In this document: positions 24,278 to 51,902 of the stretch, piece by piece | How the letters are laid out: each line of letters starts with the position of its first letter | Numbering within the stretch: position 1 is the first letter of the stretch | Origin: Clostridia bacterium | GTDB lineage: Bacteria; Bacillota; Clostridia; TANB77; CAG-508 | DNA: 51,902 nt | Direction of reading: 5' to 3' | NCBI GenBank assembly: GCA_022797635.1 | Contig: JAAWKZ010000005.1 | Span: 1 to 51,902, forward strand | Made by a program: the position numbers and the translations under genes | Notes under the pieces: model-generated | The model's database searches: none | The model's input: only the letters and a program-made list of their open reading frames with translations | What the model was told of the DNA's origin: nothing

Positions 24278-25393
24278 TTAAAAATTTAATTTGTCATAAA
24301 CATATCTGTCCATTTTCTTAATAACTTTATAACTATTTCCCCTTTTCATATGGCCTCTCCAACTATAATAGGAATTCCATACTTGCTCTTTTGTCATTTT
24401 TCCTTCTTCTATCCACCTTTTAAAAGTTTTTATCTTTTTTCTCATTCTGGGAGTTGCATCTCTATTCATTTTCCTAATTACTTTTCCTGTTTGGGTACAA
24501 AAGAATTTTGTTTTCAAAAATTTAAAACCAGTAGCAAACTTTTGTATTTTAGTTTTCTTTTCATTTAGCATCAATCCTAGTTCAGCAACTTTCACTTTTA
24601 TTTTAGCTAATGTTTCTTTTGCTTCTTCTAAAGTTGCCGTAAAAAAGTAAAAATCATCCACATATCTTGCATAACATTTCACTCTTAACGTATCTTTGAT
24701 ATAATGGTCTAAGGGGGTTACAGCAATATTGGTATAAATCTGGGATGTATGGGCCCCAAGTCCAAAACTAGTATCACCATATAATTCCATACATAAATTA
24801 GCAACATGTCTAATCTTTTCATCATAAATACGTTTTTGGTGTTCTTTGTATACTACATAATGTGGTGCAGAATTGAAAAAGTCTTTAAAATCACAAGTAA
24901 CAATATAGCCATTTAAGCCATATTTTCTAAAGTGTCTTTGCATATGGCAATTCACTCTATCTAAGGTATGATCCATTCCTTTTCCTACTCTATTTGCTGC
25001 ATTATCATAAATAAATGTATTATCATAAATAGGAACAATTACATGGTCACATAAATCACGCTGAATAATTCTCTCACTTAACTTTTGTGCTTGAATTTTT
25101 CTTCTTTTTCCTCTTTCACAAACATAGAAAATATAGGGCTTTGAAAGCTTTAATTTATCTGTTTGTAAAGTTTCATAAATTTTATAAGTGGTAGAAATTC
25201 TTTTTTTAGCATAATTCTGTGTAGAAGCCTTCCATAATACATTTCTCATGCATTTTGTGCCAGCTTGATATAGATTTTCATAAGAAAATACTTCTTCAAA
25301 ACTACCACATGCTTCACTTTTCTTTCTTCTTTTTTCTTCCCTCATAGCTTTTCTTCTTTGGTATCTTAGTTCATGTCTTTCTTCACTTGTCAT
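24278..25393 (-). CDS. DGR reverse transcriptase
   Basis: GKRRKI, ERIIQR, DFKDFF, GAHTSQ (DGR-type SQ), LDHYIK, RYVDD and LNEKKT motifs; 371 aa, no maturase/HNH extension. Confidence 0.93.
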   Translation of the reverse strand: MTSEERHELRYQRRKAMREEKRRKKSEACGSFEEVFSYENLYQAGTKCMRNVLWKASTQNYAKKRISTTYKIYETLQTDKLKLSKPYIFYVCERGKRRKIQAQKLSERIIQRDLCDHVIVPIYDNTFIYDNAANRVGKGMDHTLDRVNCHMQRHFRKYGLNGYIVTCDFKDFFNSAPHYVVYKEHQKRIYDEKIRHVANLCMELYGDTSFGLGAHTSQIYTNIAVTPLDHYIKDTLRVKCYARYVDDFYFFTATLEEAKETLAKIKVKVAELGLMLNEKKTKIQKFATGFKFLKTKFFCTQTGKVIRKMNRDATPRMRKKIKTFKRWIEEGKMTKEQVWNSYYSWRGHMKRGNSYKVIKKMDRYVYDKLNF

Positions 25394-25403
25394 TTGTATG
25401 TTT

Positions 25404-25770
25404 AACCTCCGTACATTATAATTGCGAAGTAGAACTGACTATGAAATTGACACACTATAAAAATATGTCAACCATGCAAGCAGCGTCCAGTCATCTACAT
25501 CAAAGGTTCTTTTTGGTTTGTAATTACCACAAACTCAGGAACAAATTTCCCTTTCACAAAAGTTTTGATTCACTTTTTACAGTTACTATGTCTTACTTAT
25601 ATCTTGTGAAATCCAGGCGCAACGCCACCAGTGTTGCTCGCGTTGTTATTGTTGTTAGTGTTACCGTTGCTGTTGACATTGCAGAAGTTGTTGCTGTTGT
25701 TGTAATTAGGTGAACGAAGCCACCACCAGTTCGTACTGCCTGACAACGTAATTATCGAAATTTGACCTAT
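25404..25770 (-). ncRNA. DGR template cassette 7 (TR7 25609-25743)
   Basis: TR reads SGSTNWWWLRSPNYNNSNNFCNVNSNGNTNNNNNASNTGGVAPGF; spacer end contains the RT Shine-Dalgarno. Confidence 0.88.
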
Positions 25771-25853
25771 ACTTCCTTATATTTTTCTTAATAACCTTGA
25801 TTACAGAATTTTATTTTTTCCTAATTAAACACATAATTGACATATTAATTTTT

Positions 25854-26217
25854 AACCTTTGTACATATTTAATGCAAAGCAGAACTGGCTATGAAATTGA
25901 CATTCACTAAGAACTTATCAACCATGCAAATAGCGTCCAGCCATCTACATCAAAGGTTCTTTTCGGTTTGTGGTAACCACAAACTCAGGAACAGATCTCC
26001 CTTTCACAAAAGTTTTGCTTCACTTTTTACAGTTACTATGTCTCACTTATATCTTGTGAAATCCAGGCGCAACGCCATTGTTATTGCTCGCGTTGTTCCA
26101 GTCTGAAGCACCGTTGTTGTTGACATTGCAGAAGTTGCTGCTGTTGTTGTAATTAGGTGAACGAAGCCACCACCAGTTCGTACTGCCTGACAACGTAATT
26201 ATCGAGATTTGACCTAT
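25854..26217 (-). ncRNA. DGR template cassette 6 (TR6 26059-26190, one codon shorter)
   Basis: SGSTNWWWLRSPNYNNSSNFCNVNNNGASDWNNASNNNGVAPGF plus conserved leader and spacer. Confidence 0.88.
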
Positions 26218-26278
26218 ATTGAAATTTTATACTATTTTGTTATAACTTTAATTTTTTATTTAACTTATTTATTTTTCA

Positions 26279-26637
26279 AACCTTTGTACACCATTTATAG
26301 TAGAACTGACTATGAAATTGACATATAAAAAATATGTCAACCATGCAAGCAGCGTCCAGTCATCTACATCAAAGGTTCTTTTCAGTTTATATTTACTATA
26401 AACTTAGGAACAAATCTCCCTTTCACAAAAGTTTTGCTTCACCTTTTATTGGTTACTATGTCTTACTTATATCTTGTGAAATCCAGGCGCAACGCCATTG
26501 CTGTTGCTCGCGTTGTTATTGTTGCTGTTGCCGTTGCTGTCGATATTGCAGAAGTTGTTGCTGTTGTTGTAATTAGGTGAACGAAGCCACCACCAGTTCG
26601 TACTGCCTGACAACGTAATTATCGAGATTTGACCTAT
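26279..26637 (-). ncRNA. DGR template cassette 5 (TR5 26479-26610, one codon shorter)
   Basis: SGSTNWWWLRSPNYNNSNNFCNIDSNGNSNNNNASNSNGVAPGF. Confidence 0.88.
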
Positions 26638-26747
26638 ATTTCTTTAAAATCTCACTGTTTCTAGTCTCATACTGTCTTTCGATACTACTCATTATAAAAC
26701 TTTTCTATTTCCTTACTTAACATACATTTATTGGTATATTAATTTTC

Positions 26748-27115
26748 AACCTTTGTACATACTTAATGCAAAGCAGAACTGGCTATGAAATTGACATTCA
26801 CTAAGAACTTATCAACCATGCAAGCAGCGTCCAGCCATCTACATCAAAGGTTCTTTTCGGTTTGTATTTACTACAAACTCAGGAACAAATTTCCCTTTCA
26901 CAAAAGTTTTGATTCACCTTTTATTGGTTACTATGTCTTACTTATATCTTGTGAAATCCAGGCGCAACGCCATTGTTGTTGCTCGCGTTGTTCCAGTTGT
27001 CTGTGTTGCCGTTGCTGTTGACATTGCAGAAGTTGCTGCTGTTGTTGTAATTAGGTGAACGAAGCCACCAGTTGACCGTACTGCCTGACAACGTAATTAT
27101 CGAAATTTGACCTAT
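26748..27115 (-). ncRNA. DGR template cassette 4 (TR4 26954-27088)
   Basis: SGSTVNWWLRSPNYNNSSNFCNVNSNGNTDNWNNASNNNGVAPGF. Confidence 0.88.
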
Positions 27116-27200
27116 TCTATACATGTTCTAATTCTCTATAAACTTTAAAATAATATTTCATTTTATCCTATGCTTGACACATACTGATACTTTAATTTTT

Positions 27201-27560
27201 AACCCTTGTACACTATTTACAGTAGAACTGACTATGAAATTGACATAAAAAATATGCCAACCATGCAAGCAGCGTCCAGTCATCTACATCAAAGGTTCTT
27301 TTTGGTTTGTAATTTCTACAAACTCAGGAACAAATTTCCCTTTCACAAAAGTTTTGCTTCACCTTTTATTGGTTACTATGTCTTACTTATATCTTGTGAA
27401 ATCCAGGCGCAACGCCATTGTTGTTGCTCGCGTTGTTGCTGTTGTTAGTGTTACCGTTGTTGTTGACATTGCAGAAGTAGTTGCTGCCGTCGTAACCAGG
27501 TGAACGAAGCCACCACCAGTTCGTACTGCCTGACAACGTAATTATTAAAATTTGACCTAT
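27201..27560 (-). ncRNA. DGR template cassette 3 (TR3 27399-27533)
   Basis: SGSTNWWWLRSPGYDGSNYFCNVNNNGNTNNSNNASNNNGVAPGF. Confidence 0.88.
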
Positions 27561-27656
27561 ACTATTTTATATTTTTAAAACCTTAATGATAGAATTTTAC
27601 TTTATTTCCTTACTTAACATATATTGACATATTATTGAATATTAATATCTTCTTTT

Positions 27657-28010
27657 AACCTCTGTACGAAGTAGAACTGACTATGAAATTGACACATAAA
27701 AATATGTCAACCATGTAAACAGCGTCCAGCCATCTACATCAAAGGTTCTTTTTGGTTCGTAATTTCTACAAACTCAGGAACAAATTTCCCTTTCACAAAA
27801 GTTTTACTTCACCTTTTATAGGTTACTATGTCTTACTTATATCTTGTGAAATCCAGGCGCAGCGCCACTATGGTTGCTCGCACCGTCCGCGTTATCCGTG
27901 TCACCACTGCTGCCGACATAACAGAAGTAGTATCTGTCGCTGTAATAAGGTGAACGAAGCCACCACCAGAGCGTACTGCCTGACAACGCAATTATCAAAA
28001 TTTGACCTAT
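27657..28010 (-). ncRNA. DGR template cassette 2 (adenine-poor, VR-like core 27849-27983)
   Basis: SGSTLWWWLRSPYYSDRYYFCYVGSSGDTDNADGASNHSGAAPGF in intact leader/spacer flanks. Confidence 0.8.
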
Positions 28011-28107
28011 TCTATTTTATATTTTTAAAACCTTAATGATAGAATTTTACTTTATTTCCTTATTTAACATATATTGACATATTATTGAATATTAATATCT
28101 TAATTTT

Positions 28108-28465
28108 AACCTTTGTACTTTTTATAATAGAACTGGCTATGAAATTGACACATAAGATATGTCAACCATGCAAACAGCGTCCAGCCATCTACATCAAAGG
28201 TTCTTTTTGGTTCGTAATTTCTACAAACTCAGGAACAAATTTCCCTTTCACAAAAGTTTTGATTCACCTTTTATTGGTTACTATGTCTTACTTATATTTT
28301 GTGAAATCCAGGCGCAACACCATTGTTGTTGCTCGCGTTGTTGGCATTGTCTGTGTTGCCGCTGCTATTGACATTGCAGAAGTTGTTGCTGTTGTGGTAA
28401 TAAGGTGAACGAAGCCACCACCAGTGCGTACTGCCTGACAACGTAATTATCGAAATTTGACCTAT
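28108..28465 (-). ncRNA. DGR template cassette 1 (TR1 28304-28438), cognate template of the adjacent VR
   Basis: SGSTHWWWLRSPYYHNSNNFCNVNSSGNTDNANNASNNNGVAPGF; 12 of 13 mismatches to VR are at TR adenines. Confidence 0.92.
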
Positions 28466-29009: not shown

Positions 29010-31829
29010 CTAGATGCAAAAGCCAGGCGCAACACCAAAGTAGTTGCTCGCGTGGTTGGCATAGACTGTGTTGCCGCTGCTATAGACATAGCAGAAGTAG
29101 CTGCTGTTGTGGTAATAAGGCGAACGAAGCCACCACCAGTACGTACTGCCTGAGGCATTGTACTTTTGACGTCCTGTGCTCGAACTGTTCCATGCGTCTG
29201 TTACTCCTTGGTAATATTTATACTGTGGTCCTTCTGATGTGATTGCATAGCCGTATGTTCCACTTCCATTATATCCGTTATTTACTACCTCGCTTGCTGC
29301 TAATAACCATAAGTAATCATTACATGTTGCTACACTACTTGCACTATTATATGTTCCAATGTACTTCTTCTTTACTTGTTTGATATATGCTTTATTACTT
29401 AGCTTGTCTTTTCCTTCTGCTCCATTTAAAAATGTTCTCATTGCTGTATTTGCCCAGCCTCCACTGTTTGTATTACTACTGTTCATTTGCTTATATGTGT
29501 TTCCTGTCATGAAATCTAAGAATTCAAAACTTATACTTGCCTTACTATGGTTTCCTCCATACACTCCACTATTTACTAAATCATCGTGTTTAAATCCTAA
29601 TACTCTTACTCTTCTTTCATCTGTACCATATCTTACTTTATAGATATCTCCTACTTTTATGGTTTTACTTGTTCCATTTACTGTCACCGTTGCTTGTGTT
29701 GAACTGCTTGTAACACTACTATTTGCAATAGCTTTTGCCATCTCATTTAGTTCATCCCATGATGCTGCTATTTGATCCACTGCTTTTACTGTTACACTAC
29801 ATGTTGCTGATTTATTACTTCCATCCGCTGTCTTTACTGTGATTGTTGCAGTTCCTGCTTTTACACCTGTTACTAAACCTGTATTGCTTACTGTTGCTAC
29901 TCCTGTATTGCTTGAACTCCATGTTACTGATTTATTTTTTGTACCTGCTGGTGTTACTGTTGCTGTCAATTGTGTTGTCTTTCCTTCATCCATTGAAGCT
30001 GTTGTTGGGCTTACTGTTATTCCTGTTGCCAATTGATTTACAGTTACTGCTCCTGACACTGTTTCTACCTTATTTCCTGCATTATCTACTGTTAATACAT
30101 GTAAATAATATGTTCCTGCCGTTGTTGTTGACCATGTAATACTTTGACTATTGCTACTGAATGTTCCTCCTGTATAGCTACTTGCATTTGTTCCTAGCCT
30201 TGTAGCACTTGTTGTGAATACCCATTTACACTCTGCTGCTTTTGGTCCACTTTCATTATCTTGATGTGTTACTGTTGCTGTAATATTTGCTCCTGTATTT
30301 GCACTTGTTGTTAAATTACTAATTGTTGCCTTTGGATCTACTCCATCTCTTATTGCTACATATGCTGAATCTCCAGCGTTTGTTCCATCGTATAGTCTTG
30401 CATATACACTGTCTCCATGGTTCAACTCTGATACAGTTGTAGTCTTTGTTCCTGCTGGAACTGTTGTCCATGTTCCACTGATTCCATTCTTTTGCCATTG
30501 AATCTGTAAATTTGTTGAAGTAGTTAGTGTAATACTTGCTTTTCCACTTGACCATGTTGGACTACTTGCTATAATACTTCCTGTTGTTAAGTCCGAACCA
30601 GCTCCACCTACTGTTCCTGTTTTAATTCCAGTTGATGTTCCAGCTCCTTCATTCTCTGCTTTATCTTTTGTTGTTACTTTTACATCATAATTTGTATTTT
30701 GTGTTAATCCTGTAAAAGTATAGCTTGCATTTGTTCCTGTATATTTTGCTGTACCATAACTACTGTCTGATGACTTTTTAATGAAGAAACTATAGCTTGG
30801 ACTTGTTGCCATTCCCCATTCTGCATCTGTTGCTGATGCTGTTACTGTAATGCTATTTGTTGTTACACTTCCTTTAGCAACTGATACAATTGGTGCTCCT
30901 CCATCTCTAATTTCTACTGTTGCTACATCACCTTCATTTCTTCCATCTGTTGCTCTTGCATAAACTGTGTCGTTATGATTTAAGTTACCAATTGGTCCAT
31001 TATATGGTTGCCATGTTCCATCAATTCCATTAACTTGATATTCCAATTTAAATCTTGATTCTGCATCTTTTAACATTAATTCTATACTTGCTTTTCCAGC
31101 TGACCAAGTAGTTATTCCTTTTTGTTGAATTGTTCCATATCTTAATTCACCTGTTAATTCACTAATAACTGTCTCACTTGTTCCTTTTTTATTTTTTACA
31201 ACTACTTTTATATCATATATTTTGTCTGGGTCTAAATTAGTAAAGTCTGCAGTTAAATCTGTTGTATTTTGTTTTCCTGCCAACTCATGATAAGTTACCT
31301 CATCTGACTTTTTATAGTAATAGCTTAACTTTCCCTCTTCTAATCTTCTTACTGTTACTGCTACTGAAATACTATCGCTTGATTTAGTAGTTACTGTAAT
31401 TGATCCTACTTTTGGTGGTAGTTTGTCACCTTGTACCACTTCTCCTACTGAAATTTCTCCATCAGGTGTCACAATAATTTCTACTACACATCCATCTGTT
31501 GTATCTACTATATATACATCATTTTCTCCATCTTTATCTGGTCCTGTTACATCTTTATCACTCTCAATAATTCCTGCATCAATTAATTTATCCCAAAATT
31601 CATCTAGTCCAACATCTGGATTAGTTTGTTTTTGCATCCACCAATCCATAAGAGCAATCTCTATTTTTTCTCTTGCTTGTGCTGTTTGTGTCTTTTCCTT
31701 AGCTGCTACAGCTTTTTGAAATATACTATTATCTCCCATAACATAGTTAATAGTTATACCTGCTAAAATAAGTAAAACTACAATTGTAACTACTAATGCT
31801 ATTAAAGTAATACCTTTGTTTCTTTTCAT
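29010..31829 (-). CDS. DGR target: pilin-leader surface protein with FN3-like repeats, Big_2 Ig domain and C-terminal WWLRSP (DUF6273/CLec-like) variable domain
   Basis: MKRNKG-ITLIALVVTIVVLLILAG leader; FTGLTQNTNYDVKV (FN3); VTWSSSNTGVATV (Big_2); VR at the 3' end. Confidence 0.92.
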   Translation of the reverse strand: MKRNKGITLIALVVTIVVLLILAGITINYVMGDNSIFQKAVAAKEKTQTAQAREKIEIALMDWWMQKQTNPDVGLDEFWDKLIDAGIIESDKDVTGPDKDGENDVYIVDTTDGCVVEIIVTPDGEISVGEVVQGDKLPPKVGSITVTTKSSDSISVAVTVRRLEEGKLSYYYKKSDEVTYHELAGKQNTTDLTADFTNLDPDKIYDIKVVVKNKKGTSETVISELTGELRYGTIQQKGITTWSAGKASIELMLKDAESRFKLEYQVNGIDGTWQPYNGPIGNLNHNDTVYARATDGRNEGDVATVEIRDGGAPIVSVAKGSVTTNSITVTASATDAEWGMATSPSYSFFIKKSSDSSYGTAKYTGTNASYTFTGLTQNTNYDVKVTTKDKAENEGAGTSTGIKTGTVGGAGSDLTTGSIIASSPTWSSGKASITLTTSTNLQIQWQKNGISGTWTTVPAGTKTTTVSELNHGDSVYARLYDGTNAGDSAYVAIRDGVDPKATISNLTTSANTGANITATVTHQDNESGPKAAECKWVFTTSATRLGTNASSYTGGTFSSNSQSITWSTTTAGTYYLHVLTVDNAGNKVETVSGAVTVNQLATGITVSPTTASMDEGKTTQLTATVTPAGTKNKSVTWSSSNTGVATVSNTGLVTGVKAGTATITVKTADGSNKSATCSVTVKAVDQIAASWDELNEMAKAIANSSVTSSSTQATVTVNGTSKTIKVGDIYKVRYGTDERRVRVLGFKHDDLVNSGVYGGNHSKASISFEFLDFMTGNTYKQMNSSNTNSGGWANTAMRTFLNGAEGKDKLSNKAYIKQVKKKYIGTYNSASSVATCNDYLWLLAASEVVNNGYNGSGTYGYAITSEGPQYKYYQGVTDAWNSSSTGRQKYNASGSTYWWWLRSPYYHNSSYFCYVYSSGNTVYANHASNYFGVAPGFCI
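29019..29153 (-). repeat. DGR variable repeat (VR)
   Basis: Colinear 135-nt match to TR1; encodes SGSTYWWWLRSPYYHNSSYFCYVYSSGNTVYANHASNYFGVAPGF. Confidence 0.93.
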
Positions 31830-50484: not shown

Positions 50485-50746
50485 CTTTTTTCTTCCTTTC
50501 TATTTTTTCGTCATTATATCACAAGTTTTTTAAAAAAGAAACACTTAAATCTCTCTTTTATCTTCTAATTTTTTTGATTGTCAACCCTAAATCTTCTAAA
50601 AAAATTCGCCTTTATATCTGTACATTATATAGTTAATAAACTGTCAACATACTTTAGTACATTGACAGTTTAAATATATTAGTATTTATCATAAAACAGT
50701 TTTGAAATTATAAAATCCGTAACATTCTCTTACATTTCCTACTCTT

Positions 50747-51902
50747 TTAGATACAAAATCCTGGGGCTACAGCACTACTATATCCTGCACTATTATGATG
50801 ACCAACACTGCCACTAGCATTAACATTACAGAAGTCATTTCCACTACTGTAATAAGGCGAACGAAGCCACCAACCATATGCACTTCCTCCTGTCTTCTTT
50901 GTACGTTCACTACTTAATGAGTTCCAGCTCGCTGATATTCCTTGGTAATATTTATACTGGCCTCCCTCTGTTGTAATTGCATATGCATAATATCCACTTT
51001 GATATCCACTATTTACTATTTCGCTTGCTGCTAATAACCATAAATAATCGTTACATGTTGTTACACTACTTGCACTATTATATGTTGCAATATATCTTTT
51101 CTTTACTTGTTTAATATAAGCTTTATTACTTAGTTTTTCCTTTCCGTCTGTTCCATTTAAGAATGTTCTCATAGCGGTTGAACCCCAACCACCAGAATTT
51201 GTGTGACTACTATTCATGTTCTTTTGCGTTGAGCCTGTCATGAAATCCAAAAACTCAAAACTAATACTTGCTTTTGTATGGCTTCCTCCATATATTCCTG
51301 TATTTACTAAATCATCATGTTTGAAACCTAATACTCTTACTTGTCTTTCTTCCCCATTGTATTTTACTTTATAGATTCCACCTACACTTATTTCATAACG
51401 TTCTCCATTTGCTGTATATCCTGTTGCTTTTGTTGAACTACTGTTAATGCTACTATCTTTTGCTATTGCTGTCGCTATTCTGTTCATTGTTGCCCAGCTT
51501 GCATCATCTGATCCTATTGTAACTGGTGTTGGATCTTGTACTGTTATGCTACAGGTTGCCGACTTATTACTTCCATCTGCCGTCTTCGCTGTAATTGTTA
51601 CATTTCCTGCTTTTACTCCTGTTACTACACCACTAGAGTTTACTGTTGCTACTCCTGTATTGCTACTTGTCCATGTTACTCCTTTATTTGATGCATTACT
51701 TGGTGTTACTGTTGCAGTTAATTGCTTTGTTTTCCCTTTTTCTACAGTTGTAGGTGTTGGACTTACTGTTATTCCTGTTGCTAATTGTCTTACTGTTACT
51801 GCCCCTGATACTGTTTCTAATGCATTTCCTGCATTATCTACACTTAATACATGTAAATAGTAGGTTCCTGGTGAACTCGCATTTAAATTTATCGTTTGTC
51901 CA
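50747..51902 (-). CDS. Paralog of the DGR target protein, 3' part (starts beyond the right edge)
   Basis: Frame open to the window end: ...GTYYLHVLSVDNAGN..., Big_2 domain, VRVLGFKHDDL, WWLRSP...VAPGFCI; closely parallels 29010..31829. Confidence 0.9.
   Translation of the reverse strand, partial: GQTINLNASSPGTYYLHVLSVDNAGNALETVSGAVTVRQLATGITVSPTPTTVEKGKTKQLTATVTPSNASNKGVTWTSSNTGVATVNSSGVVTGVKAGNVTITAKTADGSNKSATCSITVQDPTPVTIGSDDASWATMNRIATAIAKDSSINSSSTKATGYTANGERYEISVGGIYKVKYNGEERQVRVLGFKHDDLVNTGIYGGSHTKASISFEFLDFMTGSTQKNMNSSHTNSGGWGSTAMRTFLNGTDGKEKLSNKAYIKQVKKRYIATYNSASSVTTCNDYLWLLAASEIVNSGYQSGYYAYAITTEGGQYKYYQGISASWNSLSSERTKKTGGSAYGWWLRSPYYSSGNDFCNVNASGSVGHHNSAGYSSAVAPGFCI

Follow-up and report, generated by a model that had tools for sequence, protein, structure and literature searches.

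Adenine-biased divergence among seven tandem templates of a Clostridia diversity-generating retroelement and its possible origin by feedback into the template bank

Introduction

To our knowledge, the template repeats (TRs) of diversity-generating retroelements (DGRs) are regarded as unchanging originals, from which information passes in one direction only, to the variable repeat (VR) of a target gene. Here we describe a DGR in a 51,902-nucleotide (nt) stretch of DNA (contig JAAWKZ010000005.1 of assembly GCA_022797635.1; the whole stretch is referred to as the window) from a mouse-gut Clostridia bacterium, in which seven tandem TRs differ from one another mainly at adenines. The source genome (G000) comprises 37 contigs and 1.02 Mb, is 80% complete and has a GC content of 30%. 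The DGR of the Bordetella phage BPP-1 has the order mtd-VR, avd, TR-Sp and brt, and the present locus shares with it the order of the parts, with a small accessory gene at the avd position, a GAAA hairpin and mismatches at template adenines (PMC3240598, PMC5703328). It differs from DGRs of the BPP-1 type in that the TR and its RNA module are present seven times in tandem, with cassettes that serve different, mostly remote VRs. The element of a relative from another genus of the same family (G128) has the BPP-1-like form with a single TR, a single VR and the same RNA.

Single-TR DGRs with several targets, of the Treponema denticola or Legionella type, resemble the present element in having remote targets in trans and paralogues that share a C-terminal variable domain, and non-adjacent targets of single TRs have been described by Wu et al. 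(PMC5758913). In these DGRs one TR serves all the targets, whereas here different VRs fit different TRs. A survey recorded 271 DGRs with multiple VRs, 216 of them with one TR, and one element that it gave as an example combines two TRs with six VRs (PMC6642488). In the part of that survey drawn on here, multi-TR DGRs were counted rather than analysed, in contrast to the assignment of TRs to targets made below. A full-text literature search found no tandem array of TR plus RNA, no assignment of templates to targets within an element and no adenine-biased divergence of templates; supplementary tables of surveys may list such loci. Weinberg et al. (2017) reported that the RT motifs adjoin reverse transcriptase (RT) genes, placed RT-10 between the BPP-1 TR and RT and speculated that other RT motifs function in DGRs (PMC5737381). 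At the present locus the RT-2 motif (Rfam RF03077) lies directly 3' of the TR, seven in a row, and this position assigns a DGR role to RT-2.

Outside DGRs, banks of unexpressed and partly divergent cassettes feed expressed surface-protein genes in Neisseria (pilE/pilS) and Borrelia (vlsE). The array described here differs from these banks in that transfer would use an RNA template and an error-prone RT instead of RecA-type conversion, and in that the cassettes carry a retroelement RNA handle.

Seven template cassettes in tandem

Judged from its parts, the locus is a complete DGR. On the minus strand of the window, a target gene with a 3' VR is followed by a GC hairpin, an avd-like gene, seven head-to-tail TR units and the RT gene (Table 1). 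The anchor GGCAGTACG has eight occurrences, all on the minus strand (in the seven TRs and the local VR), against 0.05 expected. The TR units are 420-478 nt long, and each is made up of a 29-nt leader, a TR core of 125-128 nt homologous to the VR, a conserved spacer of ~200 nt and a variable AT-rich tail. The cores are mutually 75-94% identical, and the tails of most units are ~80% identical to each other. All seven spacers match the RT-2 RNA over its full length with 93-118 bits (gathering score 40), and RNAalifold on nine spacer copies predicted 60 pairs, four of them with compensatory changes.

The local VR and the TRs share the GC-rich end GCGCCTGG, after which the VR continues with CTTTTGCATCTAG and the TR with ATTTCACAAG; the 3' junctions read GG followed by CTTTTGCATCTAG in the local VR and GG followed by ATTTCACAA in the TR. 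The local VR thus has the recognition features of a BPP-1-type target, namely the shared GC-rich end, a VR-specific junction resembling an initiation of mutagenic homing (IMH) site and a downstream GAAA hairpin. The hairpin is of the element type that BPP-1 requires downstream of its VR, with GRNA as the consensus of the loop (PMC3240598).

Adenine-biased divergence between the templates

An initial annotation of the locus had proposed that the templates differ from one another mainly at adenines, and tabulation of the substitutions by base confirmed this after correction for A content. Among the 122 gap-free columns of the core alignment, 26 of the 40 with consensus A are variable against 19 of the 82 others (odds ratio 6.2, p = 1.7e-5), although this and the following tests of A bias treat columns as independent, an independence that is overstated because the seven units are related. 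Non-A columns make up 19 of the 45 variable columns. The examples on which the proposal had rested were all recovered in the codon table: TR3 has GGT TAC GAC GGC AGC AAC TAC where TR5 and TR7 have AAT TAC AAC AAC AGC AAC AAC, with each of the six changes falling at A; in TR1, CAC, TAT and CAC replace AAC, AAT and AAC, and in TR7 GGT replaces AAT. With the single TR of G128 as the outgroup for polarisation, derived states are found at 24 of 35 ancestral-A sites and at 17 of 68 non-A sites of the core (p = 3.7e-5); among the derived states, A was lost 28 times (18 A>G, 6 A>T and 4 A>C) and gained 6 times.

The RNA that follows each TR provides an internal control and shows no A bias (9/55 against 19/94). 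A sites are variable far more often in the core than in this flanking RNA (24/35 against 10/58, p = 1.3e-6), whereas non-A sites vary alike in the two regions (17/68 against 24/114, p = 0.58), indicating that the whole excess of core variation sits on adenines. The contrast of the core with the A-against-C ratio of the spacer gave z = 2.75 (p = 0.006). Changes in the spacer RNA show a local GC>AT bias (18 GC>AT against 12 AT>GC), and the loss of A in the TR cores opposes this bias. Among the TRs, the changes from A to G, T and C number 19/7/5, a spectrum no different from the 37/21/9 counted in four TR-to-VR pairs (p = 0.67).

In the AAY codons (Y, pyrimidine), position 1 varies in 13 of 15 and position 2 in 11 of 15; together, positions 1 and 2 are variable at 24 of 30 sites against 6 of 15 at the synonymous position 3 (p = 0.017). 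Every nonsynonymous change at positions 1 and 2 of an AAY codon is a change from A to another base, so that variation at adenines and variation at binding-site residues are one and the same. Codon 4 is a hot spot, with CAC in TR1, CTC in TR2, GTC in TR4, AAC in TR3 and in TR5-TR7, and TAC in three VRs. From TR1 to TR7, the numbers of deviations at consensus A are 5, 19, 7, 4, 3, 5 and 4. Relaxed constraint alone was considered as a cause of the bias and was rejected as insufficient, since A sites exceed synonymous sites in variation and the changes run against the GC>AT bias.

Different templates fit different targets

The source genome contains many further VR-like ends of DUF6273 genes (23 matches). 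All four remote targets tested carry DUF6273, and four remote VRs end DUF6273 open reading frames (ORFs). The local VR differs from the core of TR1 by 11 mismatches at A and one at another base, compared with 7-25 non-A mismatches to the other TRs. The sole non-A mismatch lies at codon 4 (28425-28427 in TR1, 29140-29142 in the VR), where TR1 has C, its own VR has T and the outgroup G128 has A; codon 4 of TR1 looks as if it had been altered after that position of the local VR was last written. The VR on contig C28 (C28:18877-19011) fits TR7, with 17 mismatches at A and two at other bases. Judging by these mismatch counts, at least two cassettes each template a different VR.

Further pairings within G000 involve older-looking VRs, which have 9-21 non-A mismatches to their best TR. 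The VR on C33 carries the GGT TAC GAC GGC patch of TR3, the VRs on C9, C19 and C29 fit TR5 best and have the same deletion of one codon as that template, and the VR on C16 shares a TGG codon with TR4 and TR6. The C33 VR (L011:1501-1635, minus strand) looks mosaic: its first third fits TR4 best, with two non-A mismatches, and the remainder fits TR3, as if two templates, or a recombinant one since lost, had been used to write it. In the sister genome G041, VRs fit templates of G000 with the following mismatches at A and at other bases: 15/2 (L032) and 18/5 for TR5, 22/4 for TR7 and 18/6 (L040) for TR4. One VR of the sister genome G042 fits TR7 of G000 with 15 mismatches at A and seven at other bases. 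As VRs of the sister genomes fit the TRs of G000, the multi-template design is shared. The array is thus a template bank that serves a family of targets, and its ancestor had a single template, as in G128. The pairing of TRs with different VRs, which the initial annotation had missed, makes the specialisation of each template for its own target a strong rival to any explanation of the A bias by the element's own activity.

The remote VRs lack a GC hairpin within 260 nt. Those on C28 (L007:1430-1494, minus strand), C24, C9 and C16 share a stretch after the stop codon, approximately TAGGTCTGRAC, AAAACAATRCRTTTT and AAAGGYRCTTT, the opening of which recurs after several VRs of G041 and G042. This conserved stretch may serve to mark the target when homing takes place in trans. 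Many contigs of the source genome start 400-900 nt upstream of a VR (C24:431-565, C9:783-914, C19:581-712, C16:774-905 and C1:900-1034); as the assembly breaks at paralogous target genes, the number and the architecture of the targets are undercounted. Within the window, positions 50740-50900 of the minus strand hold a diverged VR-like DUF6273 end with ~78% identity to TR1 over ~50 nt and 32 non-A mismatches over the full length, which probably belongs to a paralogue without a current template.

TR2, TR3 and variation between sequencing runs

The core of TR2 has a VR-like composition. It contains 25 A, 41 G and two AAY codons, compared with 37-41 A and 12-16 AAY codons in the other six TRs, and 21-27 A are found in nine of 11 VR-like segments. 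The flanks of TR2, on the other hand, are purely of the template type. In a comparison of the TR2 and TR1 units, the tails are identical at 93 of 97 positions and the cores at 100 of 128, and the differences private to TR2 number 13 in 122 core positions against three in 211 flanking positions. One of these private differences is an A>G change in the leader, outside the homology to the VR. No cognate VR for TR2 was found among 18 VR-like segments of the 80% complete source genome and further segments from G041-G043, and for none of these segments was TR2 the best template.

Variation between strains was assessed with Logan contigs and unitigs of four of the 24 runs listed, each from a different study, in which rare variants are not visible at the level of contigs; the pieces listed do not cover 29038-29143 of the local VR. 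In run X1, a 270-nt unitig (27832-28101) runs across the whole TR2 core together with its leader and its 3' junction of the template type, and its single mismatch lies outside these parts. The unit-specific junctions at 26611-26792 and 27086-27287 are reproduced exactly by unitigs of three or four runs. Run X4 has a 244-nt contig, extending into unit-specific flank, in which codon 4 of TR3 is changed from AAC to GGC, that is, by two adjacent A-to-G changes on the template strand. This allele was seen in one of the four independent runs, in a strain that is otherwise near-identical, with 1265 nt of the RT gene identical to the window. Three further differences in X4 lie on TR1 and possibly come from a VR contig. 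The same run has no contig cover over 27798-28054 (TR2), while the neighbouring parts are covered; the unit content of the array may differ between strains.

Possible origins of the adenine bias

We propose a sequence of steps by which the array could have diverged. The template module, consisting of the TR core and the RT-2-type spacer RNA, has been amplified from one copy to seven, and one RT with an Avd-like partner can copy the seven templates into DUF6273 surface-protein genes scattered over the genome. Occasionally, adenine-mutagenised sequence, donated by a rewritten VR or by cDNA, would replace a TR core through homologous recombination across the conserved core ends. Selection would then retain useful versions of the template, with ordinary point mutation and recombination between cassettes acting on top. 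Whether such feedback of mutagenised sequence contributed to the A-biased divergence is, in our judgement, evenly poised. TR2, with its VR-like core between template-type flanks, is the clearest candidate for a product of feedback; weaker ones are the patch of TR3 and the allele with AAC>GGC. Gene conversion from VR to TR fits as well as direct entry of cDNA, and the two routes are inseparable here. It is plausible, if somewhat short of probable, that the element writes into its own template bank, with TR2 as a fossil of such an event and the library evolving by the element's own chemistry.

Several observations weigh against feedback. The spacer is free of A bias in its first 55 nt, although these are A-rich, and the varying adenines of the core all belong to AAY codons, with none of the seven adenines of other codons variable. 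Selection on binding-site codons is fully confounded with mutagenesis of adenines and predicts the same table. No ordered pair of TRs differs only at adenines; the cleanest TR-to-TR pairs have A and non-A differences of 7/6 (TR7 to TR3) and 15/13 (TR1 to TR2), compared with 11/1 and 17/2 for real TR-to-VR pairs. TR2 has 10-14 non-A differences from every other TR (13 from TR1), many of them third-position transitions, so that no extant TR can have given rise to it by recent mutagenic copying and its donor, if there was one, had diverged. The TR3 allele of X4 also has a C>T change in the template-specific leader and fits an exchange of cassettes equally well. At the level of contigs, the TR pieces of the four runs are nearly all identical to the window, indicating that the templates are not hypervariable in populations. 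A swap of the IMH reportedly turns a TR into a target (Doulatov et al. 2004). All seven TRs have the template-type junction of GG followed by ATTTCACAA, which is kept in G128, instead of the VR-type junction of GG followed by CTTTWGCATCTAG, and none of the seven TR units has a VR-type junction or a GC hairpin. In BPP-1, features of the junction and the hairpin decide the direction of transfer (PMC3240598, PMC5703328). The suggestion of the initial annotation that the TRs diversify themselves is therefore only partly sustained: the A bias, the VR-like TR2 and the AAC>GGC allele speak for it, whereas the lack of an A-only TR pair, the confounding with AAY codons and the missing VR-type junction and hairpin speak against it.

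Much of this would be expected if each copy of the module had become tied to its own target paralogue or paralogues and point mutations in AAY codons had been fixed by positive selection, with the RT uninvolved. The scaffold codons and the RT-2 RNA would then be under purifying selection, and the fixed residues would be useful for the target. We regard this as a credible explanation, with a likelihood somewhat below even. It accounts for the pairing of TRs with different VR families and for the TR-specific non-A bases that are common to those VRs, and it agrees with the restriction of variation to AAY codons, the absence of an A-only TR pair, TRs that are without VR-type recognition features and the near-identity of the TR pieces across runs. 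Moreover, with unit tails mostly ~80% identical, the age of the array may have allowed many substitutions of the ordinary kind. On this explanation, however, A sites that vary ~2 times as much as synonymous third positions and 4 times as much as A sites of the flanking RNA, in opposition to the GC>AT bias, require strong positive selection and not relaxed constraint. TR2 fits it poorly, since the loss of ~13 AAY codons and the shift to a G-rich core, next to a tail still 96% identical to that of the TR1 unit, are odd for a selected template and unlike drift. Likewise, two independent point mutations are an unlikely source of the AAC>GGC double change, given that the background is near-clonal.

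Feedback itself could take the stricter form in which the mutagenised cDNA enters sister TRs, with polarity toward the avd-proximal units. This is a special case of the feedback proposed above, not an addition to it, and we consider it unlikely. The cDNA would be fully homologous to the sister cassettes, with their leader and RNA-proximal end included, which would suit the private A>G change in the TR2 leader outside the VR homology, and the most deviant unit (TR2) and the unit with the patch (TR3) are both avd-proximal. The polarity that the initial annotation had read from this arrangement did not hold, however: the trend is not significant (Spearman rho = -0.58, p = 0.17, n = 7) and is driven by TR2 alone. 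In addition, the spacer beside the core lacks the A bias expected within a spacer-primed cDNA (the priming site being known from BPP-1 only; PMC5703328), the non-A differences of TR2 separate it from every extant TR, and every unit retains the template-type 3' junction, a presumed barrier to homing. Finally, the array or its VR-like TR2 could be an assembler chimera of VR and TR reads. The source genome is fragmented and incomplete, as given above, and two sister arrays are visibly broken or collapsed. This is nevertheless highly improbable, as Logan unitigs of other studies reproduce the unit-specific junctions exactly, that of X1 spans TR2, and the seven cores are distinct, each with intact flanks.

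If the feedback reading is true, the element would have two tiers of diversification, one fast and reversible in the VRs and one slow and heritable in the templates, the latter setting the variable positions for each target. If the A-biased divergence and the VR-like TR2 do stem from products of the element, the one-way rule would be leaky and successful variants could be archived in the template; such template feedback in DGRs was not found described in the literature searched. The array also shows that a single RT can be offered a choice of templates, which widens the reachable sequence space beyond adenine positions. With seven internal replicates, the flanking RNA as a control and a single-template outgroup, the locus offers a direct test.

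Genes and features of the locus

The features of the locus are listed in Table 1. The target protein matches Big_2 (1.1e-19) and, over residues 780-939, DUF6273 (3.6e-16) in Pfam, and the local VR ends 7 nt ahead of the stop codon of its ORF. A single-sequence AlphaFold2 model of the last 180 residues of the target is poor, with a predicted local distance difference test score (pLDDT) of 34.3. The avd-like protein has a single match, phrog_30516 (function unknown, 1e-08), and no match by sequence in Pfam, NCBIfam or the PDB; its single-sequence AlphaFold2 model is all-helical with low confidence (pLDDT of 46.6). From its position, the gene is a candidate for an Avd-type accessory. RTs of the DGR type are recognised by [LIV]GxxxSQ in place of QGxxxSP, together with the expected catalytic YxDD. 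The RT of the present locus carries LGAHTSQ and YVDD and is of this type. A promoter scan of the AT-rich array region was uninformative (56 found against 34.7 expected).

Table 1. Positions of the DGR features in the window, in minus-strand order
Feature	Coordinates	Strand	Basis
Target gene of the DGR, 939 aa, with Big_2 and a C-terminal DUF6273	29010..31829	-	ORF; Pfam
Local VR, final 135 nt of target; cognate template TR1	29019..29153	-	best match TR1
GC-rich 9-bp hairpin, GAAA loop, 74 nt downstream of target stop codon	28911..28936	-	
avd-like accessory gene (candidate), 141 aa	28462..28887	-	position between VR and TR; conserved counterparts in L025 and L070
TR1 core, template of local VR	28308..28435	-	
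RT-2 RNA after TR1	28088..28295	-	RF03077, 100.7 bits, full length
TR2 core, VR-like composition within template flanks	27853..27980	-	
RT-2 RNA after TR2	27637..27840	-	RF03077, 93.2 bits
TR3 core, bears GGT TAC GAC GGC patch	27403..27530	-	
RT-2 RNA after TR3	27181..27390	-	RF03077, 106.5 bits
TR4 core	26958..27085	-	
RT-2 RNA after TR4	26728..26945	-	RF03077, 116.2 bits
TR5 core, 125 nt, one codon shorter	26483..26607	-	
RT-2 RNA after TR5	26259..26470	-	RF03077, 105.3 bits
TR6 core, 125 nt	26063..26187	-	
RT-2 RNA after TR6	25834..26050	-	RF03077, 111.7 bits
TR7 core, template of VR on contig C28	25613..25740	-	
RT-2 RNA after TR7, directly upstream of RT gene	25384..25600	-	RF03077, 117.8 bits
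DGR reverse transcriptase gene, 371 aa	24278..25393	-	RVT_1, 6.8e-15; phrog_1423, 4.1e-74

Relatives of the element

The element of G128 lies on contig C8 (L070:9000-9990, minus strand) and consists of one VR, a GAAA hairpin at the place equivalent to the local one, avd, one TR, one RT-2 RNA and the RT gene. Its TR and VR differ by 22 mismatches at A and one at another base, and the complete genome of G128 holds no further copies of the element. Across 400 family genomes, a search with the DNA of the spacer found G128 only. In a search for RF03077 in 150 genomes each of the family, the order and the class, G128, with a single copy, was the only genome apart from G000 above the cut-off, and one match fell below the threshold. 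An invariant 20-mer of the spacer had no match in viral contigs, and a spacer 19-mer was found at nine metagenome loci, none of which resembles the TR units by blastn.

RT homologues in 40 relatives are only ~30% identical to the RT of the locus. A protein search with the RT recovered three genome loci, with identities of 98% for L025 (G041) and L026 (G042) and 65% for L027 (G043). The arrays of G041 and G042 are collapsed, broken or cut at a contig end in the assembly. In G042, an RT-proximal cassette (L026:244-316) has a TR4-like 5' end and jumps after ~45 nt into the spacer, which represents either a truncated template or an assembly error.

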